Source: an uncultured delta proteobacterium
GTDB taxonomy: Bacteria; Myxococcota_A; Polyangia; Palsa-1104
Reading direction: 5' to 3'
Length of the DNA stretch: 64,000 nucleotides
Assembly: GCA_963785725.1 (NCBI GenBank)
Contig: CAWAWS010000005.1
Span: forward strand, 160,001 to 224,000
Shown: in pieces, positions 1,692 to 16,780 of the stretch
Layout of the letters: every line of letters begins with the position of its first letter
Position numbering within the stretch: position 1 is the stretch's first letter
Notes under the pieces: generated by a model
What the model was told of the DNA's origin: nothing
Databases searched by the model: none
What the model saw: the letters and a program-made list of their open reading frames with translations, nothing else
Position numbers and translations under genes: made by a program

Positions 1692-1956
1692 CGGCGTTCT
1701 TCCCCCGTCAATGGCTCGCGCAATCAGCGAACGGTCGCTCCCCGCTTCATCTTGTCATTCGCGTGATCGCCGAGCCAAGAGAAAAGTTCGGTCTTGGAAT
1801 GGGGCGTGATAAAGTGGCGCATCCCGGATGACTACGACACCTCTCGATTCGAGCGGTAGCGCGGCGCCGGGCGCGCGCGGCCTGCGCGGCGGACTGCGAG
1901 CCGCGTGGCGGTCGGATCAGGCGGCCGCGGCGTTCCGTTTCATTTCATGGGGGGAG

Positions 1957-2409
1957 ATGATGCGGCATTCGTTCCGAGCGGCGCTCGCAGTGGCAGCGGT
2001 CGCGGCGCTCTCGACGGGCGCGCGGGCCGAGCCGACGGCGATCGGCAAGGCCAAGATCGTGAACGGCAAGGTGACCATCATCCGCGGCGCCAACAAGCTC
2101 GCGGTGAAAGTGGCCGACGCCATCAACGAGCACGATGTCTTCGAGACCGGGCCCGACGGCAGCGTCGGCATCACCTTCACCGACAACACGTCGTTCTCGA
2201 TCGGGCCCAACAGCCGCGTCGCCATCGACACCTACTTCTTCGATCCCAAGAACTTGAAGGGCAACCTCTTGGCGCAGCTCAAGAAGGGGACGATGATGGT
2301 GCGCTCGGGCGAGCTGACGCGACAGCAGCCGGGCTCGGTGCAGGTCAAGACGCCACGAACCGTGCTCGGCGTGCGCGGCACGACCTTCGTCGTCTCTGTT
2401 GACGAATAG
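1957..2409 (+). CDS. Stand-alone secreted FecR-domain protein
   Basis: Signal peptide followed by the FecR core ETGPDGSVGITFTDNTSFSIGPNS...VKTPRTVLGVRGTTF. Confidence 0.85.
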   Translation: MMRHSFRAALAVAAVAALSTGARAEPTAIGKAKIVNGKVTIIRGANKLAVKVADAINEHDVFETGPDGSVGITFTDNTSFSIGPNSRVAIDTYFFDPKNLKGNLLAQLKKGTMMVRSGELTRQQPGSVQVKTPRTVLGVRGTTFVVSVDE

Positions 2410-2414
2410 GCCCT

Positions 2415-5093
2415 GTGCTTCGCGCGCCTCGGTTCGGCTGGCCTCTGTGCATCGGTCTCGGCCTCGCGTGCGCGGTCGCGCGGCTGCCGTCGGCCGGCGC
2501 GCAGTCGGCGGGCTATCAGCTCAACCGCTACGAGCCGACGCCGGCCGGTGATCCGTTTACGCTCGTCGAGTATCCCTGGTACTCGGCGACGCGCTGGTTC
2601 GCCGGCGGGCTGACGCTCGACTATGCGCACCAACTGCTCGTCGCGCACGGCGCGCCGGCGCCGATCGCCAATCAGCTCGACGGACACCTCGACCTCGCCG
2701 GCTCGCTGTTCGATCGCGTCGCCGTGACGCTGAGCGTGCCGATGGTGCTGTACGAAGGCGGCACCGCCTTCAACGGCATCGGGCCGACCGGCGCCGTCGC
2801 CGGCAATCCGCGGCTCGGCGTGCGCGCGCGCCTCGTCGGCCAGCCCGACTCGCGCGTCTCGCTGAGCGCCAGCGCCTATCTCTGGATCCCCGTTGGCGAG
2901 CAGCACAACTTGGCCGGCGACGCGGGCGTGCGCTTCATGCCGCGGCTCAGTCTCGGCGGGCTCATGCTCGCGCAGCTGCCGTGGCAGCTGCGCTGGGCGG
3001 TCAACGCCGCGTTCCTCTATCGCGGGACGGCGCGGGTGGCGACCAGCGTCTCGCCGGTCGGCAACACGGTCGGCTCCGAGCTGCAGCTCTCGGCCGGCCT
3101 CAGCTTCGTGGCGCTCGAGCGCCGCTTCAGCATCGGTCCCGAGGCGCTCTTGTCGATCGCAGTGGCCGGCGATCTGCCGAGCGGACAGCAGCTGGCGACG
3201 CTGGAGCTGCTCGGCGCCGCGCACTATCTGGTGGCCGACACGGTGCAGCTCGGGCTCGGCATCGGCGGCGGCGTGGCCGGTGCGCCCGGTCCGCCCGACC
3301 TCCGCTTCATCTTCTCGCTCGCCTATGCGCCGCTGCGCCGGCGGACCTCGACGTTCGAGCGGGTGGTCGTGCTGCCCGACGAAGACGGTCACGTGGGCGG
3401 CGTCGTCGTCGACGACGGCAAAGCGCGCACGGTGCTCGACCAGGCTTACGCCGCGACGGAGATCGGCAGAAAGGACAAGCGCGCGCGGGCGGTGCAGAGC
3501 TCGGCGCAGGCGCTGCCGCCGGGCGTGGCGGCGTTGGCGCGCGCGCTGCCGCCGTCCGATCGCGACGGCGACGGCATCGTCGACGCGCAGGACGCCTGCC
3601 CCGATCGCGCCGGCGTGGCCTCGGCCGATCCGATTCGCCACGGCTGCCCCAAAGCGTCGGAGAAGGTGGTCGTGCTGCCCGACGCCGATGGACACGTGGG
3701 CGGCGTCGAGGTCGATGACGGCCGGACGAAGACGCTCATCGATCGGCCTTACGCCGGCGTCGAGGTCGGCGCCGACGGCCACGCGCAGGCGGTGGCGCCG
3801 CCGCCGGCCAAAGCCGTGGCTCGCTCGGTCGCGGCCGTCGCCGGCGCGCTGCCGCCGCCCGATGCCGACGACGACGGCGTGCGCGACAACGAGGACGCCT
3901 GCCCCGACCGCGCCGGCGTCGCCTCCGACGATCCCTTGCGCAACGGCTGCCCGGCGGCGCTCGAGCGGATGGTGGTGCTGCCCGATCCCGATGGGCACGT
4001 CGGCGGCGTCGAGGTCGACGACGGCAAGCGGCGCACGCTCGTCGATCAGCCCTACGCCAGCGCCGAGGTCGGCGGCGATGGCCACGTGCGCGCCGTGCCG
4101 CCTTCGCTGCGGTCGGCGGTCGAGCGCTCGGTGGCGGCCATCGCGCGTACGCTGCCGGCCGCCGACGATGACGCCGACGGCATCGCCGACGCCGACGATG
4201 CCTGCCCGGGTCGCGCCGGCGTCGCCGCGCCCGACGCCCTGCGCAACGGCTGCCCGAGCGTGCGCGAGCGCGTCATCGTCCTGCCCGACGCCGACGGGCA
4301 CGTCGGCGGCGTCGAAGTCGACGATGGCCAGTCGAAGACCGTGCTCGATCGCGCCTACGCGACCGCCGAGGTCGGCGCCGACGGGCGCGCGCAGCTGGCG
4401 CCGACCTCGCCGGTGTACGCCGTGACGCGGTCGATCCGCGCCATCGCCACGACGATGCCGCCGCCCGACCGCGACGACGACGGCGTCGCCGATCAAGACG
4501 ACGCCTGCCCCGATCGCGCCGGCGCGCCCAGCGCCGACTCCCTCCGCAGCGGCTGCCCGCGCACCGTCGAGCAGGTGGTCGTATTGCCCGACGAAGACGG
4601 CCACGTCGGCGGCGTCGAGGTCGATGACGGCCACGGCAAGACGCTGCTCGCCGAGGCCTACGCCACGTCCGAGACCGGCAGCGACGGCCGCGCCCGCGGC
4701 TTGAAGACGCTGCCGGCCGAGGTGGCGAAGACCTTCGCGCAGGCGATGGCCGCGCAGCCGCCGGGCGCGCGCCTCATCATCTACTTCGACAAGCGCGCCG
4801 AGCCGGTGCGCGACTTGACCGGCCCCATCGCCAACGTCGTCGCCGAGGTCAAGGCGCGCGCCACCTATTCGATCGACGTCGTCGGCCACACCGACGAGCG
4901 CGGCTCGCGCGCCGCCAATCAGCGCATCGGCCTCGAGCGCGCGCAGCTCATCGCCGACCGCCTGATCGCGGCCGGCGTTCCCGTCGAGCGCGTGCACGTC
5001 ATCTCCAAGGGAATGACCGAGCCGTCGGTGTCGGTGAAGAAGAAGAGCGTCGCCGAATTCCGCAACCGCCGCGTCGAAGTCTTCGTTCGTTAG
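2415..5093 (+). CDS. OmpA-family outer membrane protein: N-terminal beta-barrel-like region, five tandem modules with TSP3-like Ca-binding motifs, C-terminal OmpA_C domain
   Basis: C-terminal GHTDERGSRAANQRIGLERA...RNRRVEVFVR; DxDxDGxxDxxDxCP motifs; repeated VVVLPDxDGHVGGVEVDDG. Confidence 0.9.
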   Translation: MLRAPRFGWPLCIGLGLACAVARLPSAGAQSAGYQLNRYEPTPAGDPFTLVEYPWYSATRWFAGGLTLDYAHQLLVAHGAPAPIANQLDGHLDLAGSLFDRVAVTLSVPMVLYEGGTAFNGIGPTGAVAGNPRLGVRARLVGQPDSRVSLSASAYLWIPVGEQHNLAGDAGVRFMPRLSLGGLMLAQLPWQLRWAVNAAFLYRGTARVATSVSPVGNTVGSELQLSAGLSFVALERRFSIGPEALLSIAVAGDLPSGQQLATLELLGAAHYLVADTVQLGLGIGGGVAGAPGPPDLRFIFSLAYAPLRRRTSTFERVVVLPDEDGHVGGVVVDDGKARTVLDQAYAATEIGRKDKRARAVQSSAQALPPGVAALARALPPSDRDGDGIVDAQDACPDRAGVASADPIRHGCPKASEKVVVLPDADGHVGGVEVDDGRTKTLIDRPYAGVEVGADGHAQAVAPPPAKAVARSVAAVAGALPPPDADDDGVRDNEDACPDRAGVASDDPLRNGCPAALERMVVLPDPDGHVGGVEVDDGKRRTLVDQPYASAEVGGDGHVRAVPPSLRSAVERSVAAIARTLPAADDDADGIADADDACPGRAGVAAPDALRNGCPSVRERVIVLPDADGHVGGVEVDDGQSKTVLDRAYATAEVGADGRAQLAPTSPVYAVTRSIRAIATTMPPPDRDDDGVADQDDACPDRAGAPSADSLRSGCPRTVEQVVVLPDEDGHVGGVEVDDGHGKTLLAEAYATSETGSDGRARGLKTLPAEVAKTFAQAMAAQPPGARLIIYFDKRAEPVRDLTGPIANVVAEVKARATYSIDVVGHTDERGSRAANQRIGLERAQLIADRLIAAGVPVERVHVISKGMTEPSVSVKKKSVAEFRNRRVEVFVR
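3363..4760 (+). repeat. Intragenic tandem repeat, 303-bp (101-aa) period, 4 full copies plus 1 partial
   Basis: The VVVLPD module starts at 3363, 3666, 3969, 4272 and 4575, exactly 303 bp apart. Confidence 0.95.
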
Positions 5094-5097
5094 CGCC

Positions 5098-6504
5098 TTA
5101 GTGGTCGGAGCCGCCTTGCAGCTCGGACAGCCGCGCGTCGTGCTCGAGGAAGCGGTCGGCGAGCGCCTTGACGAACTGCCCCAAGAACGAGCTGCGCACC
5201 AGCTCCTCCAGCGCGTGACGCTCGACGACGACGGCGCTGACCTCGTCGATGGCGATGACGCTGGCCGAGCGCGGCGCGTCGGCGAAGATGGCCGTCTCGC
5301 CGAACACCTGCCCCGCTTCCAGCGTTCGCACCGTCACCGTGCGCGTCGGATCGGCGGCGTCGCGCTTGCGCACCTCGCAGCGGCCGCCGGTGATGATGAA
5401 GGCGGCGCGCGCCGGCTCGCCCTCGGCCACGATCACCTCGCCCGCGTGGAACTTCTGCATCGCGAACCAGTTGCCGCCGCGCAAGAACGCGCGCAGCTCT
5501 TCGGCCAGCTCCTCGACCGTTTGATGACGCTTGTTCGGGTCGGCCTCCATCGCCTTCATGGCGATGCGGCTCAGCTTCGGCGGCGGCTTGATGGCGACGC
5601 CGGTGCTCTCCTCGGGCGGCTTGAGCTGCCGGCGCTGCGCCAGCGGCAGCGCCTCCGGCACCGGGCCCGGATAAGGCGGCGAGCCGGTCAACATCTTGTA
5701 GAGGATGCCGCCGATCGCGAACACGTCGGTGCGCTGATCGATCTGCTGGATGTGACCCCAGGCCTGCTCGGGCGCCATGTACTGCACGGTGCCGATGACG
5801 GTGCCTTCGGGATCGGCGCGGCGCGGAATCTGCGAGCGGTGGCCGGCGCACACGTGCGCGCAGCCCCAGTCCATGACGTAGACCTGACCGAAGCCGCCGA
5901 CCATGATGTTGTCGGGCTTCAAGTCGCGATGAATGATGCCGCGGCTGTGCGCGAAGGCCATGGCGTCGCAGACCTTGACCAGGATCTCGAGCAGCCGCTC
6001 GAGGTCGCGCTGCGTCTTCTGCGCGGCGATGAGGCGCGTCAGCGTCTCGCCGTCGACCAGCTTCATCGTGAAGTAGCTGGGCACGCCGCGCGCGTCGAGC
6101 ACCAGCTCGTGCACGGGGACGATGTTGGGGTGGTCGAGCTGCCCGGTGATGCGCGCCTCGTCGAGAAAGCGCTCTTTGGAGTCCGGCTGCGCCGCCAGCT
6201 CGTTGTCGAGCACCTTCATGGCGATGTGGCGCAAGAGCTCGGTGTCGTAGAGGCGGCGAATCGAGCCCATGCCGCCGCGCGCGATCTCGCCCTCGTCGCG
6301 CAGGCGATCTTTGCCGCGCAAGGACGGCGGCGCCGCGGCCGGCGTCGGCGGCGGACCGGCGCCCTCGGCGCGCTCCGACTCCCAGGTGTCCACCGAGCCT
6401 TCGAACCAGGGGACATCGCTGGCCTCGTCGTCGACGGCGGAGCTGGGCTTGGCGCGCTGCAGACGGCCGACGGCGGTGACCGGATCATCGTGGCTCATAG
6501 ACAC
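5098..6504 (-). CDS. Hanks-type Ser/Thr protein kinase with C-terminal cyclic nucleotide-binding domain
   Basis: IARGGMG, IAMK, HRDLKPDN, DWG and GTVQYMAPE kinase motifs; C-terminal GEVIVAEGE...GQVFGETAIFADAPRSASV cNMP cassette. Confidence 0.92.
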   Translation of the reverse strand: MSMSHDDPVTAVGRLQRAKPSSAVDDEASDVPWFEGSVDTWESERAEGAGPPPTPAAAPPSLRGKDRLRDEGEIARGGMGSIRRLYDTELLRHIAMKVLDNELAAQPDSKERFLDEARITGQLDHPNIVPVHELVLDARGVPSYFTMKLVDGETLTRLIAAQKTQRDLERLLEILVKVCDAMAFAHSRGIIHRDLKPDNIMVGGFGQVYVMDWGCAHVCAGHRSQIPRRADPEGTVIGTVQYMAPEQAWGHIQQIDQRTDVFAIGGILYKMLTGSPPYPGPVPEALPLAQRRQLKPPEESTGVAIKPPPKLSRIAMKAMEADPNKRHQTVEELAEELRAFLRGGNWFAMQKFHAGEVIVAEGEPARAAFIITGGRCEVRKRDAADPTRTVTVRTLEAGQVFGETAIFADAPRSASVIAIDEVSAVVVERHALEELVRSSFLGQFVKALADRFLEHDARLSELQGGSDH

Positions 6505-6628
6505 TCCCGGTCGTCATCATACCCTCGCCGCGATTGACAGGTCCATAGCGCCGCTTCTACGATGAGAACGCCGTCGGCATCGGCCGGGAGTCATTCGTGC
6601 GTCTGGGGACGAGAGCGTTCGAGCGCTG

Positions 6629-9082
6629 ATGGGCAACCGCCGCGTCTGGCTCGTGCAACTGCCGCTGGTGCTGGTGTGGACGCTGGCGTTCACGATCGCG
6701 CAGCGCGGCGACGAGCGGACGCTGACGAGCCCGCTGCTGCGCGATCGCGTCTATCGGACGCTGCGCATGATGGAGGGCTTCGCCACCGACCTGAAGTTTC
6801 GCCTGCGCGGGCCGCGGCCGCTGACGCCCAAGATCGTGATGGTCGAGATCGACGAAGACGCCATCAACCAAGTCGGCCGCTGGCCCTGGCACCGCGACGC
6901 GATGGCGGTCCTCATTCAGTCGGCGTTCGACGCCGGCGCGCGCGTCGTCGGGCTCGACATCGTCTTCTCCGAGCCCGACGTGCGCGTGCCCGAAGCGGTC
7001 GGTGAGCTCTTGCGCGGGCACGGCCTCGGCGACCAGATCCCGGCGTTCGAGACCGATCTGACGTTACAGCGCATCATCGCGCTCCATCGCGATCGGCTCG
7101 TGCTCGGCTGGATGAGCGACGACGCCTGCGTGCCCGCCTGGGAACATTGCGATCCGATGCTGGCGCTGCCCAAAGGCTTCGAGAAGTTCGCCTACGGCCA
7201 CCTGAGCGGCACGTTTCGTCAGGACGGGACGGCGCTCGTGACCGTCCCCACCATCACCGCCAACATCGACGGCTTCGACGAGGCGGCCGCGCACTCGGGC
7301 TACTTCCAAGGCTGGCCCGATCCCGACGACGTGACGCGCCGGACCTTCTTGGCCGTCACCGCGAACGGGCACCTCTTTCCGTCGCTGCCTCTCGAGATGG
7401 CGCGCGTCGGCCTCGACGACGAGCTCGGCGCCGACCTCGACGGCCGCGGCGAGATCGCCAGCCTCTCGCTCTTGCGCGCGGGGCGGCGCCTGCCGGTCTC
7501 GAAGCACGGCGTCCTGCCGATCAACTTCCTCGGGCCCGGCTATCAAGAAGGCGCGTTTCCGTGGGTGCCGGCGATGCAGCTCATCGGCGACGCCGAGCGC
7601 ATCCAGTTCGTGCGCAAGCACAAGGTGGAGTCGGTGGCGCGCTCGGCGCTGTTTCAGGACGCCTACGTCTTCATCGGCTTGTCGGCGCAGGGTGTGAACG
7701 ATCTGCGTAACTTTCCCTTCGCCTCGCACGGGCCCGGCGTCGAAGGCCACGCGACGGTCTTGGAGAACATCCTGTCGCAGCAGTTCCTGCGCACCGGCGC
7801 CGGGCTCTGCGATGGACGGCTGGTGCTGGCGCTGATGACGCTGGGCGCGCTCCTGTTCGGCTGGGCGATGGTGCGGCTGGCGGCGCTGCCGGCGCTCTTG
7901 CTGTCGGTCGCGGTCATCGGTGCGCTGGCGGTCGTGGACGTGGCGCTGTTCAGCCGGCGCAACATCGATCTCGACTCCGTCTTCCTCTTCGGCGAGCTGA
8001 CGACGCTCTTCGTGGCGACGCTGGCGGTGAAGTACGTCCAAGAGGAGCGCGGCAAGCAGCTCATCCGCGGCACCTTCTCGAAGTACCTCGCGCCCGCCGT
8101 CGTCGACGAGATGCTCAAGGACCCGGGCAACGTCAAGCTGGGCGGCGAGACGCGCAAGCTGACCATCATGATGTCCGATCTGCGCGGCTTCACCGCCACC
8201 GCCGAGCGCCTGCGGCCGGAACAGGTGCTGGGCCTGCTCAACAATTACTTGGGGACGATGGCGGACATCATCGTCGACCATCAAGGCACGATCGACGAGT
8301 TCATCGGCGACGCCATCCTCGTCATCTTCGGTGCGCCGCTGGCGCGCGCCGACGACGCGCGCCGCGCCGTGGCCTGCGCGGTGGCGATGCAGCGGGCGAT
8401 GAAGGGCATCAACGAGCACAACGCGCGGCTCGGGCTGCCGGCGATCGAGATGGGCGTCGCGCTCAACACCGGCGAGGTCATCGTCGGCAACATCGGCTCG
8501 CAGCAGCACATCAAGTACGGCGTCGTCGGCAGCCACGTGAACCTGACGGCGCGCATCGAGTCCAACACCGTCGGCGGGCAGGTGCTGATCTCGGGCACGA
8601 CGCTGGCGTTGGCGGGCGCCGACCTCGTGCTCGGCGACCAGCAGCTGATCGTCGCCAAGGGCTTTCCGCAGCCGATTCCGGCGTTCGAGGTCCGTGGCAT
8701 CGGCGGCGAGTACGACCTCATGCTCGACGAGGTGGACCTGGCGCTGGTGACGCTCGAACGCCCGCTCGACGTGCGCTACCGGCTCGTCATGAGCAAGAAC
8801 GAGGAAGGGCCGGAAGCGGTCGGACAGCTGCGCGCGCTGTCCGCCAAGGGCGCCGTGCTCGCCGGCGACGGCGCGCTCGACGCCTTCGCCAACCTCAAGC
8901 TCACGATGGTGGCGCCCACCGGTGTCGCCATCGAGGGCGCGCTCTACGCCAAAGTCGTCGCCGGCGGCGCGGCGTGCACGCTGCGCTTCACGGCGGTGCC
9001 GCCGGAGGTCGAGCGCTTCGTCGCGCAGCAGCTCGAGCCGGCGACGCCCGAGCGTTCGAGCGAGCTGGCCGGACGCTCCTGA
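6629..9082 (+). CDS. CHASE2-domain membrane class III nucleotidyl cyclase, probably guanylyl (Cya2-like), with C-terminal PilZ-like beta domain
   Basis: CHASE2 motifs (IDEDAINQVGRWPWHR, GLDIVFSE, PGVEGHA), TM helices, catalytic motifs SDLRGFT, IDEFIGDA, KYGVVGSHVNLTARIE. Confidence 0.9.
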   Translation: MGNRRVWLVQLPLVLVWTLAFTIAQRGDERTLTSPLLRDRVYRTLRMMEGFATDLKFRLRGPRPLTPKIVMVEIDEDAINQVGRWPWHRDAMAVLIQSAFDAGARVVGLDIVFSEPDVRVPEAVGELLRGHGLGDQIPAFETDLTLQRIIALHRDRLVLGWMSDDACVPAWEHCDPMLALPKGFEKFAYGHLSGTFRQDGTALVTVPTITANIDGFDEAAAHSGYFQGWPDPDDVTRRTFLAVTANGHLFPSLPLEMARVGLDDELGADLDGRGEIASLSLLRAGRRLPVSKHGVLPINFLGPGYQEGAFPWVPAMQLIGDAERIQFVRKHKVESVARSALFQDAYVFIGLSAQGVNDLRNFPFASHGPGVEGHATVLENILSQQFLRTGAGLCDGRLVLALMTLGALLFGWAMVRLAALPALLLSVAVIGALAVVDVALFSRRNIDLDSVFLFGELTTLFVATLAVKYVQEERGKQLIRGTFSKYLAPAVVDEMLKDPGNVKLGGETRKLTIMMSDLRGFTATAERLRPEQVLGLLNNYLGTMADIIVDHQGTIDEFIGDAILVIFGAPLARADDARRAVACAVAMQRAMKGINEHNARLGLPAIEMGVALNTGEVIVGNIGSQQHIKYGVVGSHVNLTARIESNTVGGQVLISGTTLALAGADLVLGDQQLIVAKGFPQPIPAFEVRGIGGEYDLMLDEVDLALVTLERPLDVRYRLVMSKNEEGPEAVGQLRALSAKGAVLAGDGALDAFANLKLTMVAPTGVAIEGALYAKVVAGGAACTLRFTAVPPEVERFVAQQLEPATPERSSELAGRS

Positions 9083-9101
9083 GCTCCGCGCGCGCCGCCG
9101 C

Positions 9102-9975
9102 TCAGCGGCGAACGAAGCGGCCGAGCGACGGCTGCCACACCTCGACGGCGCCCTCGACGGCGATGGCGACGTTGGCGCAGCCGGCGGCGTGACGCGCGAA
9201 CGCGTCTTCGATGAGCCGATCCGACTGCAGCGGACCGTGATGGCCGGCGAGCACGCGCGTCTGCGGATGGCGCCGCGCCAGCTCGGCCGCGTACTCGATC
9301 GAATCCGTGCCCGAAGGTGTGCTGCGCGACGTCGCTGTGGTTGGCGTCGACGATGACGAGCTGCGCGGTCGCGACCACGGCGTCCTCCAGCGCGCGCGTC
9401 GCCGCCGTCGGCTCGTGATCACTCAGGTAGGCGACGGTCGGGCCGTCGGTGACGGCCAGCCGATAGCCGAGCGTGTCGAGGTAGCGCCGGTTGGGCTCGA
9501 GGCCGCTGTAGTGGTGGAGCGCCACGGTCTCGAGCGTCGCGCCCGGCAACGCCACGCTCGCGCCGGCCGCGAGCGCGACGAACGACAGGCGTCGCAGCGT
9601 GCCCAGCGCCAGCACCTCGAGCGGGACGAACGCCGGCGGCGCGTGCCCGGCGGCAATCGTGTCGAGCGCCTCTTGCGGGCCGAGCACCGTCAACTCGAGG
9701 CCGTTGTCGCGGCGCCACATCCACTCGGCGTCCTTGAGCCCTTCCCAATGATCGAGGTGCGCGTGCGTAACGAGCACGTGCAGTCGCTCGATCGCGCGCA
9801 GGCGCTCGTCGCCGGCGAGCGCGGCGGCGAGCGCGCCCAGGCCGCGACCGGCGTCGAAGACGAAGAGGTCGGCGCCGACCGCCAGCGAGTAGCACGACGT
9901 CGCGTTGCCGATCCGCGAATGCCACGTGTTGCGGCCGCCGCGACAACCCCAAATGTGCAGCTGCGTCTCGTTCAC
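9102..9975 (-). CDS. MBL-fold metallo-hydrolase (candidate cNMP phosphodiesterase); one apparent +1 frameshift near 9302
   Basis: WGCRGG, TSCY, FDAGRG, THAHLDH and YLSDHE motifs. Removing one base in minus-strand GGATTCGATC joins ...HTFGHG to SIEYAAELARRH...GHHGP. Confidence 0.8.
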
Positions 9976-9998
9976 GATGGCGGGCGTGGCCAACGCGC

Positions 9999-10982
9999 TC
10001 AGGCCCAGCCGAGCCGGTTGCGACCGGCGCGCTTGGCGGCGTAAAGGGCTTCGTCGGCGCGCTTCAGGAGCTCGGCGGCGCTCTCGCCGGCGCGGTATTG
10101 CGTGCCGCCCATCGTGGTCGTGATGCGGATGCCGCGGTCGTTGCCGGGATGGGGAAAGCTGCCGATGGCGGCGCGCAGCGTCTCGGCGCGGGTGCGCGCC
10201 TCCGCTTCGTCGAGGTCGGCGAGCAAGAGGATGAACTCGTCGCCGCCGACGCGGCACGGCAAATCGGACTTGCGCACGCCGTCCTGCAAGATGGCGCCGA
10301 CGGCTTTGAGCACGAAGTCGCCGGCGGCGTGACCGAGCGTGTCGTTGACGGGCTTGAAGTGGTCGAGGTCCATCGCGATGAGGACGAGCCCGCCGCCGAT
10401 GGCCCGCGCGCGCTCCATGAAGCCGTGCACCTCGGCGTCGAAGCAGCGGCGGTTGAAGAGGCCGGTGAGCGCGTCGGTGCGCGCCGTCTCCTCCTCTTGC
10501 GTCAGCCGCTTGCGCGTGAACTCGAGGCTCTTGATGGTGTCCTGCAGCTCGACGTTGCGCCGCCGCAGATCGGCGATCAAGTTGCGCTCGGCGTCGACCA
10601 AGAAGGCGCAGGCGCGGCGCAAGAGCGTGAAGATGGCACGCGGATGGGTCGCCAGCAGCGACTGAATGCTCGACTGGTCGACGACCTGCAGGCGCGCCGC
10701 GCTCGTGGCGACGATCGAAATGCTGCGCTGGTGGCCGGGGTTGATGAACGAGAGCTCGCCGAAGTAGCTGCCGGGGCTGTACGTGCGCACGACCTTGCCG
10801 GTGTCGAGGACGGCCTCGGCCTCGCCGGCGACGAGGAAGAACATCGAATCGCCGGGCTCGCCTTGCGTCAGGATGCGCTCGCCGGCCGCGCAGTGGCGCA
10901 GCGCGCCCGCCGCGAAGATGGCGTCGACCTCGTCATCGGTGAAGGCGTGCAACGGGGAATCGGCCGGGAATGCACTACGCAC
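9999..10982 (-). CDS. Diguanylate cyclase with N-terminal cNMP-binding domain (cNMP - coiled coil - GGDEF)
   Basis: QGEPGDSMF...SYFGELSF...QRS cNMP motifs; TDALTGLFNRR, DLDHFKPVNDTLGHAAGD, RKSD I-site, GGDEF. Start is GTG 10982 (TAAAAT 7 nt upstream) or ATG 11021. Confidence 0.92.
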   Translation of the reverse strand: MRSAFPADSPLHAFTDDEVDAIFAAGALRHCAAGERILTQGEPGDSMFFLVAGEAEAVLDTGKVVRTYSPGSYFGELSFINPGHQRSISIVATSAARLQVVDQSSIQSLLATHPRAIFTLLRRACAFLVDAERNLIADLRRRNVELQDTIKSLEFTRKRLTQEEETARTDALTGLFNRRCFDAEVHGFMERARAIGGGLVLIAMDLDHFKPVNDTLGHAAGDFVLKAVGAILQDGVRKSDLPCRVGGDEFILLLADLDEAEARTRAETLRAAIGSFPHPGNDRGIRITTTMGGTQYRAGESAAELLKRADEALYAAKRAGRNRLGWA

Positions 10983-11117
10983 GCGCTCGATTTTAACACC
11001 AATCGCGCGCCGGTGGCTCATCCCGATGGCGCCGGGCCGGGTTTGCCGAGGCGCCATCGCGCCGGGCGCCTGACGGTCTTGCCGTCGGAGCGCACCCGTG
11101 TATACCTTTCGCAAAGC

Positions 11118-11543
11118 ATGGCAGCACTCGGTGAAGTCGGTTCCGTCACGAGCGTGCACTTTCGCGTCAGCACCGCCAATCAGGCCGCTTTCCGCGCGCT
11201 CAGCGGTGACGACAACCCGCTCCATTTCGACGACGCCTTCGCCCGAGCGCGCGGCTTTGCCGGCCCGGTCGTCTATGGTGGGCTCATCGTCGCCGCCATC
11301 TCGCGCCTGCTCGGCAACGAGGTCCCCGGCGCCGGCTGCGTCTGGCACTCGCTCAAGCTCGACTTTCGCGCGCCGCTCTACGTCGACGAGCCGGCCACCG
11401 TGCAGGCGACCTTGACGCACTTTACCGAGGCGCTCGGGCTGTGGCGCCTCGGCCTCGACGTCGCCGTCCCCGGCCGGCGCATCGCCAAGGGCGAGGCCTC
11501 GGCGATGCTGCGCGACACCACCACCCGCGCCACCGCCGAATGA
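11118..11543 (+). CDS. MaoC-like hotdog dehydratase
   Basis: FRALSGDDNPLHFDDAFA...GPVVYGGL hydratase-2 motif. Confidence 0.88.
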   Translation: MAALGEVGSVTSVHFRVSTANQAAFRALSGDDNPLHFDDAFARARGFAGPVVYGGLIVAAISRLLGNEVPGAGCVWHSLKLDFRAPLYVDEPATVQATLTHFTEALGLWRLGLDVAVPGRRIAKGEASAMLRDTTTRATAE

Positions 11544-12202
11544 AAGCGGTCCTCGTCACCGGCGCCGGCGGCGCCATCGGCTCGGCCATCGCCAGCCTAG
11601 CGCGCGCGCGCGGCTGGGCCGTCATCGCCGCGCAGCGCGATCGAGCGGCGACGCTGCAGCTGCCGCTCGACGAGCCCGACCGCTTCGCCGACGTCTTGGC
11701 CACCGTCGATGCGTCGTTGGATGTGGCGGCGCTGGTGCTGTGCGCGTCGCCGCCGCCGCTGGTGTCGTCGTTCACGAAGACGCCGAGCGACGCGCTCGTG
11801 CAGCAGCTCCAAATCAATGTCGTCGCCGCGCATCGCCTGCTGGCCGAGTGCTGGAAGCGCTTTTTCCGGCCGCGCAAAGGCGGCCACGTCGTCGCCTTCT
11901 CGACGGCGGCGCTGGGTCCGCCGCCGACGCCGCACCTGGTCTCGTACTTGGTCGGCAAGGCGGCGGTCGAGGCGCTGGTCGAGGCGGCGCTCGCCGAGCT
12001 CGGCCCGGCCGGGCTGCGCGGCACGGTCATTCGTCCCGGGTTCACCGAGACGCCGATGCTGCGCGCATTTCCGACGCCCATCCTCGACGCCGCGCGCCAG
12101 TCGACGCGCTTTCTGACGCCGGCCGAGGTCGCGGCGGCCACCGTCGACGCGCTCGACCAACCGCCGGCCGAGCCGCTCCTGCGTAGGATTGAGCTGCCAT
12201 GA
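11540..12202 (+). CDS. SDR family oxidoreductase (ketoreductase-like)
   Basis: VTGAGGAIG, YxxxK (YLVGK), PGFTETPM; ATGA overlap with the MaoC gene. Confidence 0.88.
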   Translation: MKAVLVTGAGGAIGSAIASLARARGWAVIAAQRDRAATLQLPLDEPDRFADVLATVDASLDVAALVLCASPPPLVSSFTKTPSDALVQQLQINVVAAHRLLAECWKRFFRPRKGGHVVAFSTAALGPPPTPHLVSYLVGKAAVEALVEAALAELGPAGLRGTVIRPGFTETPMLRAFPTPILDAARQSTRFLTPAEVAAATVDALDQPPAEPLLRRIELP

Positions 12203-14073
12203 AGTGGTTACCCGCGCTCCCCAGCCACGACGCCTTCGCCGAGCTCCGCGCGCACACCAATCCGACGACGCGCCTGGCCGCCATCGTTCGCCTCGCCCAC
12301 TTCGATCTCGATTTTCTGCAGACGGCCAAGCTCGATCGCCTGCTGGAAAAGACCGTGCGCGAGCTCGATGGGCCGGCGCCGCTGCCGAATCTGACGCGCG
12401 TGCGGCTGGCCTGGCTGGCCTCCTCCACCGTCGAGCAGCTGCTGCCGGGCGCGCGCATCGCCGGCTTGCGTCGCGGGCTGTATCTCGACATCCATTTGGC
12501 GCCTTACGGCCAATATCAGCAGGCGCTGCTCGCGGACGAAGGCGCGCTCGTCGACTTTCAGCCCGAGGCGGTGTTCATCCAGCTCGCGCCCGAGGACGCG
12601 CTGCCCGAGCTGCCGCTGGCCGCCACCGCCGCCGAGGCCGCCACCGCCGTCGCCGAGCGCGTGGCCGAGCTGACGCAGCTGTGGTCGCGCGCGCGCGAGC
12701 GCCATCGCGCGCTCGTCATCCACGCCACCGTGCCCAACTTGGCCGAGCGCCTCTTCGGCTCGTACGAGCTGCAGATTCCCGGCGCGCGCTCGAGCCTCAT
12801 CGCGCGCCTCAACCGCGCGCTCGTCGACGCGGCGCCGGCGGCCGGCGCGATCGTGTGCGACCTCGACGGCTGGTTCGCGCGCCTCGGCCACGACGCGTTC
12901 GACCCGGTGCGCTGGTTCCAGGCCAAGCAGCTGGTCGCGCCCGCGCTCGGTCCCTTGTTCGGCGAAGAGCTGGCGCGTCTCGTCGCCGCCGCGCGCGGCC
13001 GCTCACGCAAGGCGCTCGTCCTCGATCTCGACAACACGCTGTGGGGCGGCGTGGTCGGCGATGATGGCGTCGACGGCTTGATCCTCGGTCAAGGCGACGC
13101 CGCCGGCGAAGCGTTCGTCGCCTTCCAGCGCTACGTCAAGCAGCTGGCGACGCGCGGCATCGTGCTCGCCGTCTGCTCCAAGAACAACGCCGACACGGCG
13201 TTGGCGCCCTTTGCCCTCCATCGCGAGATGGTCCTGTCGCGCGACGACATCGCCGTCTTCGTCGCCAACTGGACCGACAAGGCGACCAACCTGCGCACCA
13301 TCGCGGCCACGCTCAACCTCGGGCTCGACGCGCTCGTCTTCGTCGACGACAACCCGGTCGAGCGCGATCAGGTGCGGCGCGAGCTGCCCGAGGTCGCGGT
13401 GCCGGAGATGCCCGAGGATCCGGCCTATTTCGTGCGCACGCTCGCCGCCGCCGGCTACTTCGAGACCGTCGCCTTCTCCGCCGAGGATTGGCAGCGCAGC
13501 GAGCAATATCAGACCAACGCCAAGCGCCAGCGACTGCAAGAAGGCAGCTCCGACATGGACGGCTTTCTGCAGAGCCTGGGCATGACGATGGTGACGTCGC
13601 CGGTCGGCGGCAACAACCTGACGCGCGTCGTCCAGCTCATCAACAAGACCAACCAGTTCAACCTGACGACGCGCCGCTACACCGAGGCCGAGGTCGAGGC
13701 CGTCGCCGGCTCGCCCGACCACATCGCGCGCTGCTTTCGCCTGCGCGATCGCTTCGGCGACAACGGCATCATCTCGGTCGTCATCGCGGCGCGCGAGCAC
13801 GACGCCTGGAACATCGAGACCTGGCTCATGAGCTGCCGCGTCCTCGGCCGTAAAGTCGAGCAGGCGGTGCTGGCCGAGCTGGCGCGCGCGGTGCAATCGC
13901 ACGGCGGCCGCGCGCTCGTCGGCCGCTACCTGCCGACAGCCAAGAACGGGCTCGTCGCCAATCACTACCGAGACTTGGGCTTCCAAAAGGCTGACGCGAC
14001 CGATCAGCGCTGGACGCTCGACCTCGACACCTTCGTCCCCGCCCTCCTACCCATCGAGCTCATCCATGACTGA
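12199..14073 (+). CDS. FkbH-like HAD-IIIC glyceryl transferase/phosphatase
   Basis: LDLDNTLWGGVVGDDG, CSKN, FVDDNPVER, QLINKTNQFNLTT and MSCRVLGR motifs. Confidence 0.93.
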   Translation: MKWLPALPSHDAFAELRAHTNPTTRLAAIVRLAHFDLDFLQTAKLDRLLEKTVRELDGPAPLPNLTRVRLAWLASSTVEQLLPGARIAGLRRGLYLDIHLAPYGQYQQALLADEGALVDFQPEAVFIQLAPEDALPELPLAATAAEAATAVAERVAELTQLWSRARERHRALVIHATVPNLAERLFGSYELQIPGARSSLIARLNRALVDAAPAAGAIVCDLDGWFARLGHDAFDPVRWFQAKQLVAPALGPLFGEELARLVAAARGRSRKALVLDLDNTLWGGVVGDDGVDGLILGQGDAAGEAFVAFQRYVKQLATRGIVLAVCSKNNADTALAPFALHREMVLSRDDIAVFVANWTDKATNLRTIAATLNLGLDALVFVDDNPVERDQVRRELPEVAVPEMPEDPAYFVRTLAAAGYFETVAFSAEDWQRSEQYQTNAKRQRLQEGSSDMDGFLQSLGMTMVTSPVGGNNLTRVVQLINKTNQFNLTTRRYTEAEVEAVAGSPDHIARCFRLRDRFGDNGIISVVIAAREHDAWNIETWLMSCRVLGRKVEQAVLAELARAVQSHGGRALVGRYLPTAKNGLVANHYRDLGFQKADATDQRWTLDLDTFVPALLPIELIHD

Positions 14074-14308
14074 ACCCGAGATTTACGCGGTTTTACAGAC
14101 GCTCTTCCACGACATCTTCGACGACGAGTCGATCACGCTCACGCCCACGACCAGCGCCAAAGACATCGCCGAGTGGGACTCGTTCAACCACGTCAACATC
14201 ATCGTCGGCGCCGAGACCAAGTTCAAAATCAAGTTCACCACGTCGGAGATCGGCGGCCTCAAGAACGTGGGTGACTTCGTGCACCTCATCGCCCGAAAAA
14301 CCGCGTAG
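14066..14308 (+). CDS. Acyl carrier protein
   Basis: 80 aa, DIAEWDSFNHVN phosphopantetheine Ser motif; overlaps the FkbH gene. Confidence 0.92.
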   Translation: MTEPEIYAVLQTLFHDIFDDESITLTPTTSAKDIAEWDSFNHVNIIVGAETKFKIKFTTSEIGGLKNVGDFVHLIARKTA

Positions 14309-15801
14309 TGCTCTTCAATTCCTACACCTTCCTGTTCCTGTTTCTGCCGATCACGCTGGCGTTGGTGCTGGGCGCGAGCGCGCTCGGCTTGCGGCGCACG
14401 GCCAAAGTGTCGCTGCTCGTGGCGTCGCTGTTCTTCTACGGCTGGGCCAACCCGCGCTACCTGATCGTGCTCGGCGCGCTCGTCGCCTTCAACTACGGCA
14501 TCTGCCGCCTGCTCATGGCCGACGCCGGCGACGACGGCCGCCGCAAGGCCGTCTTCATCCTCGGCGTCGTCGCCAACGTCGCCACGCTGGCCTACTTCAA
14601 GTACACCAACTTCACCGTCACCACCGTCGACGAGCTCTTCGGCTGGCAGCTGCGGGTGGCGCGCATCGCGCTGCCGCTCGGCCTGTCGTTCATCACGTTC
14701 CAGAAGATCGCGCTCTTGGTCGACGTCTACGATCGCAGCGTCACGTCGTTCGGGCTGCTCGACTACTGCCTGTTCGTGACGTTCTTCCCGCAGCTCATCG
14801 CCGGTCCCATCGTCCATCACCGCGAGGTCTTTCCGCAGCTCGCCGACCCGAAGACGCTGCATTACTCGGCCGACGGCTTCGCGGCCGGCATCGCGCTCTT
14901 TTGCATCGGCTTCTTCAAGAAGGCCATGCTCGCCGACAGCGTCGCGAGCTTGGCCGGCCGCGTCTTCGACGGCGCCGCGCACGGCCAGCACCAAGGCGCG
15001 CCGATGCTCTGGCTCGGCGCCGTCGCCTACACGCTGCAGCTCTATTTCGACTTCTCGGGCTACTGCGACATGGCCATCGGGCTCGGCCGGCTGTTCGGCA
15101 TCCGCCTGCCCATCAACTTCGACTCGCCCTTCAAGGCCACCAACATCATCGACTTCTGGCGTCGCTGGCACATGACGCTGACGCGCTTTTTGACCGCCTG
15201 CATCTACAACCCGATCTTGCTCGCCATCAATCGCCGTCGCGCCGCCCAAGGTCTGTCGAGCGGCCGCCGCGGCATGACGCTGCCGGCGTTTACGCAGCTC
15301 GTGGTCCTGCCGACGATGGTGACGATGTGCATCGCCGGCATTTGGCACGGCGCCGGCTTCCAGTTCGCCGTCTTCGGCGCGCTGCACGGCCTGTACCTCG
15401 TGTGCAACCACGCCTGGCGCACGTTCGGCAAGAAGCGCAAAGCCTCGCCTCGCTTCGACATCCCCAAGACCGCCGGCACCTTCCTGCTCGTGGTCGTGGC
15501 GTTCGTCTTCTTCCGCGCCGACTCGGTGCACACGGCGCTGCGCATGCTCGGCGAGATGACCGGGCTGCACGGTCCCAACCCGCGCCCGCAGCTGACGTCG
15601 ATCGCCGGCACGGTGGTGCTGGCGGCGATCGCCTTCGCCGCGCCCAACTCCAACCGCGTCGTCGACGGCGCGGCCGGCGAGGCGAGCCGCTGGTGGGACT
15701 TCCGCCCGTCGCTGGCGTGGGGCTTGTGCATCGGCGCCATCGCGCTGGCGGCGATGCTGCAGCTCGACGCCTCCACCGAGTTTCTCTACTTCAATTTTTG
15801 A
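14308..15801 (+). CDS. MBOAT family O-acyltransferase (AlgI/DltB-like)
   Basis: MLFNSYTFLFLFLP, LPLGLSFITFQ, FFPQLIAGPI, YFDFSGY, FWRRWHMTL and GIWHGAG motifs. Confidence 0.95.
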   Translation: MLFNSYTFLFLFLPITLALVLGASALGLRRTAKVSLLVASLFFYGWANPRYLIVLGALVAFNYGICRLLMADAGDDGRRKAVFILGVVANVATLAYFKYTNFTVTTVDELFGWQLRVARIALPLGLSFITFQKIALLVDVYDRSVTSFGLLDYCLFVTFFPQLIAGPIVHHREVFPQLADPKTLHYSADGFAAGIALFCIGFFKKAMLADSVASLAGRVFDGAAHGQHQGAPMLWLGAVAYTLQLYFDFSGYCDMAIGLGRLFGIRLPINFDSPFKATNIIDFWRRWHMTLTRFLTACIYNPILLAINRRRAAQGLSSGRRGMTLPAFTQLVVLPTMVTMCIAGIWHGAGFQFAVFGALHGLYLVCNHAWRTFGKKRKASPRFDIPKTAGTFLLVVVAFVFFRADSVHTALRMLGEMTGLHGPNPRPQLTSIAGTVVLAAIAFAAPNSNRVVDGAAGEASRWWDFRPSLAWGLCIGAIALAAMLQLDASTEFLYFNF

Positions 15802-16780
15802 GCAGCTTGAGCGCGCTCAGCGCTTGCGCGAACAGCTCGGTGAACGGCGTCGCGTCGTGCCCGTCGATGTGCGTGCCGTCGGGACAGGCGAACGCCTGCA
15901 TCGCCGGGAAGTCTTGAAACGAGAGGCTGGGGAAGGTCTTTTGAATGAGCGCCCAATAGCGGGCATCGGGAAAGCGCTCCTCCTCGGCGGCCAGGACCGC
16001 CTGCGTCGCCAGCATGCGGAAGAAGATGACGTGGCCGCCGCGCGCGGTGATGGCGGCGACCCAGGCTTGCAGCTGGCTCAGGCGCGCGGCCATCTCGGCG
16101 TCGCTGGCGACGGTGCCGTAGTTGCGCAGCGCATCGGCGAAGAAGCGCTTTTTCTCGGCTAGGTCGGCGAGCGCGAAGCTCATCCGCAGCTGCCGCCGCG
16201 CGTCCATGCGGTAATAGGGCACGGGCGGCGCGCGATGGCGCTCGAGCGCGAAATGCGGGATCGAGGCCATGCCGAGCTCGGGCAAGAGGCTCACGAGCCG
16301 GCTCGAGAACCACGTGCGCACCGACGTCTCCACGCCGTCGAGCGGCGCGCGCGCGTGATACTTCTCGACCCACGTGTTGGTGGCGGTGTTGTCGCTGGTG
16401 AAGAGGTCGGCCGGCAGCACCTCGACGACGAGCGTGCCGTGAAACGTCGGATCCTCGGCGAAGTCGCGCAGCATGCCGAGCAGATGGCCGCTGTTGACCG
16501 ACAGCTGAATGAACTCGCGGCCGGGAAAATGGCGCTCGAGCACGTCGAGATCCATGGCCGCTTGCAGGCGCGACGAGCCGACCAGCGCCACCACGCGCGG
16601 ATCTTTGGAGGCGGCCGCGCGCCACACCGACCACAGCCCGTTGCTGTTGGACACCGAGGGGACGAAACCTTTGGCACGCCAGGTCAATTCCCAGCCGGCC
16701 GCCAGCGTCAGCGCCAGCGCCATCCCCAGGAAAAAGCGCCGCGGCCGCACGCCAACCGGCGCTGAAGAAGGTTCGGCCAT
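15791..16780 (-). CDS. Membrane-anchored SGNH-like protein (DltD/AlgJ-type partner of the MBOAT)
   Basis: N-terminal TM helix, LVGSSR (block I Ser) and C-terminal DGTH (DxxH); convergent with and overlapping the MBOAT gene. Confidence 0.65.
   Translation of the reverse strand: MAEPSSAPVGVRPRRFFLGMALALTLAAGWELTWRAKGFVPSVSNSNGLWSVWRAAASKDPRVVALVGSSRLQAAMDLDVLERHFPGREFIQLSVNSGHLLGMLRDFAEDPTFHGTLVVEVLPADLFTSDNTATNTWVEKYHARAPLDGVETSVRTWFSSRLVSLLPELGMASIPHFALERHRAPPVPYYRMDARRQLRMSFALADLAEKKRFFADALRNYGTVASDAEMAARLSQLQAWVAAITARGGHVIFFRMLATQAVLAAEEERFPDARYWALIQKTFPSLSFQDFPAMQAFACPDGTHIDGHDATPFTELFAQALSALKLLKN

Follow-up and report, generated by a model that had tools for sequence, protein, structure and literature searches.

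Only a few bacterial pathways that use cyclic GMP (cGMP) have been elucidated; the receptor for the cGMP made by the Synechocystis guanylyl cyclase Cya2 'is awaiting discovery' (PMC10187061). In this work we analyze a 64,000-nucleotide stretch of DNA (the window) from an uncultured delta proteobacterium of the class Polyangia (assembly GCA_963785725.1, contig CAWAWS010000005.1, positions 160,001 to 224,000), which encodes a class III cyclase of the Cya2 type flanked by genes for candidate readers and a candidate eraser of its product. The window cyclase shares with Cya2 the succession of CHASE2 domain, transmembrane (TM) segments, transducer element, cyclase domain and an extension of ~118 amino acids (aa), as well as a gap-free, 54% identical catalytic domain in which the Glu, the Gly, the supporting Lys and every catalytic residue are the same. 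It differs in having Ala in place of a Tyr, in its myxobacterial host, in a CHASE2 domain that aligns only weakly with that of a cyanobacterial homologue, and in the presence of linked candidate readers. Since its active-site residues are those of Cya2, a proven bacterial cGMP synthase, the window cyclase probably converts GTP to cGMP, and probably does so within a conserved cassette of six genes whose predicted roles are to detect a signal from the envelope and to make, read and destroy cGMP.

Several other described systems resemble parts of this cassette. In Xanthomonas campestris the guanylyl cyclase gene XC_0250 adjoins XC_0249, a gene for a GGDEF protein with a cyclic nucleotide monophosphate (cNMP)-binding domain (An et al. 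2013, PMC3770947). However, XC_0250 is a cyclase-TPR protein and not of the CHASE2/Cya2 type, and that report describes no kinase, metallo-beta-lactamase (MBL), FecR or OmpA gene, all four of which are present in the window. Cyclase genes are likewise clustered with a cNMP reader in Rhodospirillum centenum (gcy/cgrA, PMC10187061) and Sinorhizobium (CyaD1/D2/K-Clr, PMC10187061, PMC5498481), although in both cases the reader is a CRP transcription factor, and the Sinorhizobium product is cAMP. Signaling by the Sinorhizobium CHASE2 cyclase is tied to a FecR-domain protein, which was reported as dispensable for signal perception (PMC5498481). Finally, the cGMP-dependent protein kinases (PKG), represented by the Plasmodium CNB-D domain (PMC4412288) and human PKG I, combine a Ser/Thr kinase and cNMP domains in one chain. 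The kinase in the window has the same combination together with the guanine-reading beta5 Arg and the Ser after the phosphate-cassette Arg (R473 and T493 positions), but it is PknB/PknD-like and carries one C-terminal cNMP domain instead of tandem N-terminal domains before an AGC kinase; judged by its sequence, it is an analogue of PKG and not a member. The enzyme class (Cya2) and the pairing of a cyclase with a cNMP-GGDEF protein (Xanthomonas) are therefore already known, whereas a class-wide comparison of Glu- and Lys-type cyclases, a within-genome control, a fold assignment for the tail and a FecR/OmpA input are added here.

Active site and relatives of the cyclase

The cyclase gene and its features are as follows.

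6629..9082, + strand: Cya2-clade class III cyclase, 817 aa, with N-terminal TM segment, CHASE2, TM bundle, transducer element, catalytic domain and PilZ-fold tail
6761..7834, + strand: CHASE2 extracytoplasmic sensor domain, aa 45-402 (Pfam PF05226, E 2.7e-44)
8138..8731, + strand: catalytic domain, aa 504-701, gap-free match to 2W01 (Cya2)
D517 8177, E557 8297, D561 8309, K629 8513, G631 8519, + strand: codon positions of active-site residues
N638 8540, A641 8549, R642 8552, K677 8657, + strand: codon positions, continued
8726..9046, + strand: PilZ-fold C-terminal domain lacking the RxxxR and D/NxSxxG motifs

The Pfam Guanylate_cyc domain covers aa 509-661, and hydropathy peaks are located at aa 5-25 and 391-443. 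An antisense open reading frame of 490 aa (7064-8536) shadows the cyclase frame.

Among solved structures, the two best matches of the cyclase are 6FHT (E 7.9e-71) and Cya2 itself, 2W01 (E 1.5e-66), both gap-free, whereas the match to the adenylyl cyclase CyaB is far weaker (E 1.3e-36, ~100 bits lower). The 6FHT protein is a phytochrome-Cya2 chimera bearing E488K, a lone change that was reported to switch the specificity of Cya2 and turn it into an adenylyl cyclase, the wild-type and E488K forms each being specific (Etzl et al., PMC5995499). The alignment column of Glu557 contains Glu in both 2W01 and the window protein; because 6FHT has Lys exactly at this column, Glu557 is identified as the purine-specifying residue. 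The AlphaFold model of the cyclase (mean pLDDT 88) superimposes on 2W01 with Z 32.5 and a root-mean-square deviation (rmsd) of 1.4 over 198 residues at 54% identity, pairing model residues 27-224 with chain residues 435-632. The constant offset of 69 yields the equivalences D517=D448, R519=R450, E557=E488, D561=D492, G631=G562, N638=N569, R642=R573 and K677=K608. All eight residues of the Cya2 row in the table of PMC6005667 are identical in the window cyclase, and the supporting Lys of Cya2 is retained as K629. The metal-binding Asp pair, the Asn/Arg pair and the phosphate-binding Lys and Arg are all present, while Glu557 and Gly631 stand in place of the Lys and Asp/Thr that read adenine in class III adenylyl cyclases. 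A first-pass annotation made from the sequence alone had assigned Glu and Gly to the two specificity positions and regarded the metal-binding Asp pair and the transition-state N/R pair as intact (its motifs lie at nt 8288-8320, 8486-8530 and 8537-8560). The alignment with Cya2 and CyaB and the structural model bear out both assignments: the Glu sits at the specificity column, Gly631 is Gly562, and D517, D561, N638 and R642 are in place.

The Glu/Gly pattern is conserved in 120/120 of the nearest homologues, and Glu is found in 144 of the best 150 cluster representatives, with Lys in none, so the pattern is not a chance one. At the position of Ala641, corresponding to the Tyr that precedes the transition-state Arg in the VNLTYR motif of Cya2, the nearest 120 homologues never have Tyr, and the 150 representatives have Ser/Ala/Gly in 138 cases and Tyr in 10. 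These ten form a single group in the tree, and the three named clusters among them are all cyanobacterial. When the four specificity columns were removed from the alignment, the window domain fell in a 39-row group (support 99) that includes Tyr-bearing relatives of Cya2, Cya2 itself not being a row of this tree. On this basis the window cyclase is placed in the broad Cya2 clade (Glu-Lys-Gly), outside the Tyr-bearing subclade. Its closest named homologues are from Polyangia (80-83%). An independent origin of Glu-Lys-Gly in the HAMP cyclases L251 and L253, which lie outside the clade in the tree, was rejected by constrained-tree comparison, as the tree uniting all 41 Glu/Asp-Lys rows was better by 20 log-likelihood units (p-AU 0.73).

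A search with the cyclase and its tail produced 4562 matches among 8000 scored candidates, every class III type counted, and Cya2-type matches occur at 54 places in 46 of the 301 genomes of the class surveyed. The first-pass annotation had called cGMP a messenger rarely documented in bacteria, which holds for worked-out pathways and not for the enzyme type, abundant as it is in sequence space. Two groups of cyclases depart from this type. The L012-L015 proteins, members of the family, keep a PilZ-like tail; their Glu is replaced by Ala, Leu or Gly and their supporting Lys by Gln, which suggests that their base specificity is changed or lost. In two genomes of the class, L311 (G260:C1:1347823-1348359) and L315 (G095:C22:885472-886002) bear the animal-type guanylyl signature Glu, Arg, Cys, so that myxobacteria possibly possess another kind of guanylyl cyclase; a gene for a cNMP-domain protein lies within 1.5 kb of L315.

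Cassette genes and the pairing of kinases with Glu-type cyclases

The genes and sites surrounding the cyclase are as follows.

1957..2409, + strand: small FecR-domain protein with a signal-peptide-like N-terminus
2415..5093, + strand: outer-membrane protein with TraB-like N-terminal barrel region, TSP3-type repeats and OmpA peptidoglycan-binding domain
5098..6504, - strand: soluble Ser/Thr kinase ending in a cNMP-binding domain (beta5 Arg, phosphate-cassette Arg-Ser), candidate cGMP-regulated kinase
6516..6563, no single strand: two overlapping divergent sigma-70-like promoter matches between the kinase and cyclase genes, found by consensus match
9102..9975, - strand: MBL-fold hydrolase (HxHxDH), candidate cNMP phosphodiesterase, frame broken near 9302
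9999..11021, - strand: candidate cGMP-gated diguanylate cyclase made up of a cNMP-binding domain, a coiled coil and a GGDEF domain, the latter intact and bearing an RxxD inhibitory site

The kinase gene is transcribed away from the cyclase with the divergent promoter-like sites in between, and the MBL and cNMP-GGDEF genes converge on the cyclase from the right. In the region 1700-11200, two sigma-70-like promoter matches were found compared to 0.3 +/- 0.6 in shuffles; the scan around the cassette gave two terminator-like sites, fewer than expected by chance. No plasmid match was found at E 1e-40.

The kinase domain has PknB/PknD-type matches and is followed by a single cNMP domain. This kinase-cNMP family occurs at 117 places in 85 of the 301 genomes, and its association with cyclases is strongly biased by cyclase type. 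A kinase gene is located within 10 kb of 21 of the 54 Cya2-type cyclase places, independently of the cyclase input domain, CHASE2, REC and HAMP being among the inputs. Among the regions around all 117 kinase places, 24 from 10 families have a cyclase of the Glu type (a count favoured by up to 3 loci, as ten Glu-type regions were 20 kb long and pre-selected), 6 have one of the Gln/Val type and one has a Lys-type cyclase at a distance of ~5 kb. In contrast, the background of 60 cyclase loci, the best-scoring of 83 places in six genomes chosen for holding a kinase-cyclase pair, comprises 49 loci of the Lys type, 9 of the Glu type (7 Cya2-type and 2 animal-type) and 2 others, and no cNMP domain lies within 1.5 kb of the 49 Lys-type loci. 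The genome of the window itself has eight class III domains, i.e. six of the Lys type, a degenerate one and the Glu-type window cyclase. Although the census is inflated by kinship (cyclase adjacency changes 9 times on the kinase tree versus 21 in shuffles), the contrast between the Glu and Lys types is large despite both kinship and the longer regions. The kinase family avoids Lys-type cyclases, and its pairing with the Glu type provides evidence for cGMP that is independent of the active-site residues. At two loci of one genus (L073:10759-13966 and L078:5674-8866), the pair of Glu-type cyclase and kinase is preceded by a CofD-like gene and others, RimK-like in L073 and HPr-kinase-like in L078. 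The kinase orthologue in the closest relative (L022:6777, genome G002) has a frameshift before the cNMP domain, possibly an assembly error.

The pockets of the two candidate readers agree with this association. The best PDB matches of the cNMP domains of both the kinase and the GGDEF protein are Plasmodium PKGs, in which R473 and T493 of PfPKG recognise guanine (PMC4412288). Both window domains have Arg at the first of these positions and Ser at the second. A profile of the kinase family detected 18 cNMP domains in the genome, and only two of them have the R473-type Arg, namely those encoded by the flanking genes. The combination of this Arg with Arg-Ser/Thr is found in 24/24 kinases beside Glu-type cyclases versus 50/89 others. 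The kinase branch without beta5 Arg (L243, L250, L257, L263, L266, L269, L272, L274 and L275), which has Ala after the cassette Arg in 8/9 members, a cAMP-type pattern, includes no member near a Glu-type cyclase, and no cyclase of any type was found in the regions of these nine members. Both marks are kept in 11/11 close orthologues of the GGDEF protein; two distant orthologues lack the Arg and have no cyclase in their loci.

The cNMP domain of the GGDEF protein also matches 5H5O, which we take to be the XC_0249 cNMP domain, over 71 to 71 residues at equal lengths. Four of its invariant residues, Glu, Leu, His and Glu, are spaced like E90, L91, H98 and E146 of XC_0249 (PMC3770947). For the N145/E146 guanine dyad, located by spacing alone, Glu is present in 9/9 proteins and Asn is replaced by Ala/Thr, so that the window protein would differ from XC_0249 at N145.

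The linkage of the cassette genes is conserved around orthologues of the cyclase. Close orthologues of the cyclase (at least 69%) are found in 8/301 genomes from two families, the MBL orthologue (at least 58%) in exactly the same 8 genomes and always adjacent to the cyclase, and the cNMP-GGDEF orthologue (at least 68%) in 7 of these 8 and no other genome at that level. We compared 14 loci with a full-length-type orthologue, several of which are on contigs that end early. The OmpA and FecR genes are present in 12/12 and 10/10 loci with enough upstream DNA, the MBL gene in 11/13, the GGDEF gene in 10/13 and the kinase gene in 8/14. There are at least three gene orders among these loci, and beyond the genus of the window the order is FecR-OmpA-cyclase, co-directional. 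Metagenome loci retrieved with the GGDEF protein as query included 4/80 with close orthologues, and a cyclase match was found in 0 of the 75 weakest. At L100:9962-20200, the neighbours of the cNMP-GGDEF orthologue are an OmpA-like gene and a Glu-type cyclase of greater divergence, which suggests module shuffling.

Further observations concern the remaining genes. The HxHxDH motif is present in 12/12 MBL homologues. MBL relatives at ~50% identity (L096/L375 in G027:C55 and L097 in G025:C26) adjoin a cyclase whose specificity residue is Gln, and the G027 relative also adjoins a cNMP protein with beta5 Arg; no cyclase was seen at a third distant relative, L374 (G029). The outer-membrane protein matches the TraB model with E 1.8e-20, far below the cut-off of that model, and contains five 'VVLPD.DGHVGGV.VDD' modules alternating with TSP3-type Asp-rich repeats between its TraB-like region and OmpA domain. 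A Cys-rich, secreted or lipoprotein-like open reading frame with no Pfam match (990-1691, - strand) lies beside FecR in two relatives from the genus. On the other side of the cassette, consecutive MaoC dehydratase, SDR, FkbH-like and MBOAT genes (11115-16780, + strand) likely constitute an acyl/glyceryl transfer cluster unconnected with it.

The C-terminal tail

The 118-aa extension of Cya2 is structurally uncharacterised according to PMC5995499, which reports that it is needed for good activity and that the isolated core has very low activity without it. A continuous alignment (44%) with the cyanobacterial CHASE2 protein P0271 extends through the last 120 residues of the window cyclase; the match to Cya2 was made through this protein, the tail of Cya2 itself not being among the compared sequences. 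A comparable tail is present in 149 of the 150 representatives. In the predicted structure this tail is a PilZ beta-barrel with a C-terminal helix. In the full model it matches the PilZ domains of PP4397 (3KYF; Z 11.0, rmsd 2.9, 102 aligned residues) and BcsA (4P00; Z 10.9, rmsd 2.8, 98 aligned residues), and a Foldseek search with the tail alone returned PilZ domains at all ranks from 1 to 10 (E 4e-4 to 1e-3). At the sequence level the similarity is faint: Pfam gives no match for the window tail alone and a weak PilZ match in 7/20 tails, and a tail profile compared with sequences of solved structures produced chance-level matches alone. By extension from these homologues, the tail of Cya2 may also have a PilZ-like fold. 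Our literature searches found no paper giving a PilZ fold for a Cya2-type extension.

PilZ domains that bind cyclic di-GMP (c-di-GMP) have the consensus motifs RxxxR and D/NxSxxG. The window tail has no RxxxR and has Ala in the D/N place of the second motif; among the representatives, D/NxSxxG occurs in 0/149 tails and RxxxR near the start in 10, and among the 120 near homologues RxxxR occurs in 11, within a REC-type subgroup. Because these motifs are missing, the tail is better regarded as a putative structural activator, by analogy with the extension of Cya2, than as a c-di-GMP receptor.

Proposed pathway and alternative explanations

In the pathway that we consider most likely, the OmpA/TraB-like outer-membrane protein and the periplasmic FecR protein would pass a signal to the CHASE2 domain. 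The TM bundle and transducer element would then turn the cyclase, a homodimer, active, with the PilZ-fold tail as its structural activator. The Ser/Thr kinase and the GGDEF protein would each bind the cGMP formed through their cNMP domains, altering phosphorylation and c-di-GMP levels, and the MBL hydrolase would terminate the signal. We infer every functional step of this scheme; the active site, the Cya2 architecture, the PilZ fold and the gene linkage come from sequence, fold and genome comparison. The full version would be a complete myxobacterial envelope-to-kinase cGMP pathway with an outer-membrane/FecR/CHASE2 sensor, a Cya2-type cyclase, a cGMP-activated single-chain kinase and diguanylate cyclase, an MBL eraser, and a repurposed PilZ domain serving Cya2-type enzymes as their activating tail; it is a tentative proposal that we would not yet assert as a whole. 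Under this proposal the kinase and animal PKG would be counterparts of independent construction, and the MBL protein would belong to an unstudied family.

In addition to the kinship and pre-selection that affect the kinase census, several observations weigh against the cGMP pathway. No cyclase was found in the region at 87/117 kinase places, although contig ends truncate 30 of the first 100 regions. The beta5 Arg is frequent in the kinase family even without a nearby cyclase (55/94), and the Arg-Ser motif is reported in the cAMP receptor CAP as well (PMC10187061), so that the pocket residues are no more than suggestive of cGMP. The coupling of FecR and OmpA to the cyclase is read from gene order alone. 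The matches of the MBL protein are to generic MBL families and include no phosphodiesterase family, and its frame is broken in the assembly by one extra base near 9302; this base is absent from three relatives and from a near-identical 151-base record with two other differences, which is compatible with an artefact of the assembly as well as with a strain-level lesion.

The remaining difficulty is Ala641, at a third determinant, which the first-pass annotation overlooked. The Tyr of Cya2 is reported to raise its guanylyl cyclase activity (PMC4215837 citing Rauch 2008; PMC6005667), and since the window cyclase has Ala instead, its selectivity for GTP may be weaker than that of Cya2. The mycobacterial Ma1120 with Glu and Gly and no Tyr still preferred ATP (kcat/Km 1.92 vs 0.29), and only the Glu+Gly+Tyr form was neutral between the nucleotides (PMC4215837); Ma1120 is a distant scaffold, yet the insufficiency of Glu and Gly there still counts. 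Literature searches revealed no characterised Tyr-less member of the Cya2 clade. These points, together with the activation of Sinorhizobium Clr by both nucleotides (PMC10187061) and the non-diagnostic Arg-Ser motif, would fit a weakly selective enzyme that makes both cGMP and cAMP, with neighbours answering either. We regard this as unlikely, since the scaffold is 54% identical to Cya2, in which each form is specific (PMC5995499), a small residue at 641 is the rule in the clade and may be compensated by other residues, and both readers have the PKG-type Arg. The Glu is regarded as the principal guanine determinant in PMC7384201. A further alternative, in which ordinary cAMP readers surround an adenylyl cyclase or a sensor with almost no activity, is very improbable: the low activity of the Cya2 core without its extension (PMC5995499) and the earlier failures of class III sequence predictions (PMC4215837) speak for it, but neither adenine-reading residue is present, the catalytic residues and the extension vary little or not at all, and the kinase family avoids Lys-type cyclases.

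Any of these views could be supplemented by a feedback in which c-di-GMP from the neighbouring GGDEF protein binds to the tail and acts on the cyclase. The PilZ fold, the linkage of the GGDEF gene and the stimulation of Cya2 by its extension (PMC5995499) are compatible with this addition. It was rejected, as the window tail lacks the binding motifs, which are absent or rare among the representatives, and the tail occurs throughout representatives most of which were not checked for a GGDEF neighbour; we consider it quite improbable. A cGMP-producing enzyme, as predicted by the first-pass annotation, thus remains the best reading and gains independent support from its genomic neighbourhood, its activity being a prediction.

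Our literature searches found no study of cGMP signaling in myxobacteria or of the kinase-cNMP family, and none of a cGMP-activated bacterial Ser/Thr kinase. If the proposed pathway is true, such a kinase would be new as far as these searches reach, and the cassette would offer an untested bacterial parallel to animal cGMP-kinase signaling. The predicted PilZ fold supplies a structure for the extension on which, according to Etzl et al. (PMC5995499), the activity of Cya2 depends. Within one cassette there are candidates for the synthesis of cGMP, for its readout by two proteins, for its removal and for the input, all of them small enough for expression and assay. Finally, whether Glu, Lys and Gly suffice without the Tyr of Cya2 decides the annotation of most of this large family.

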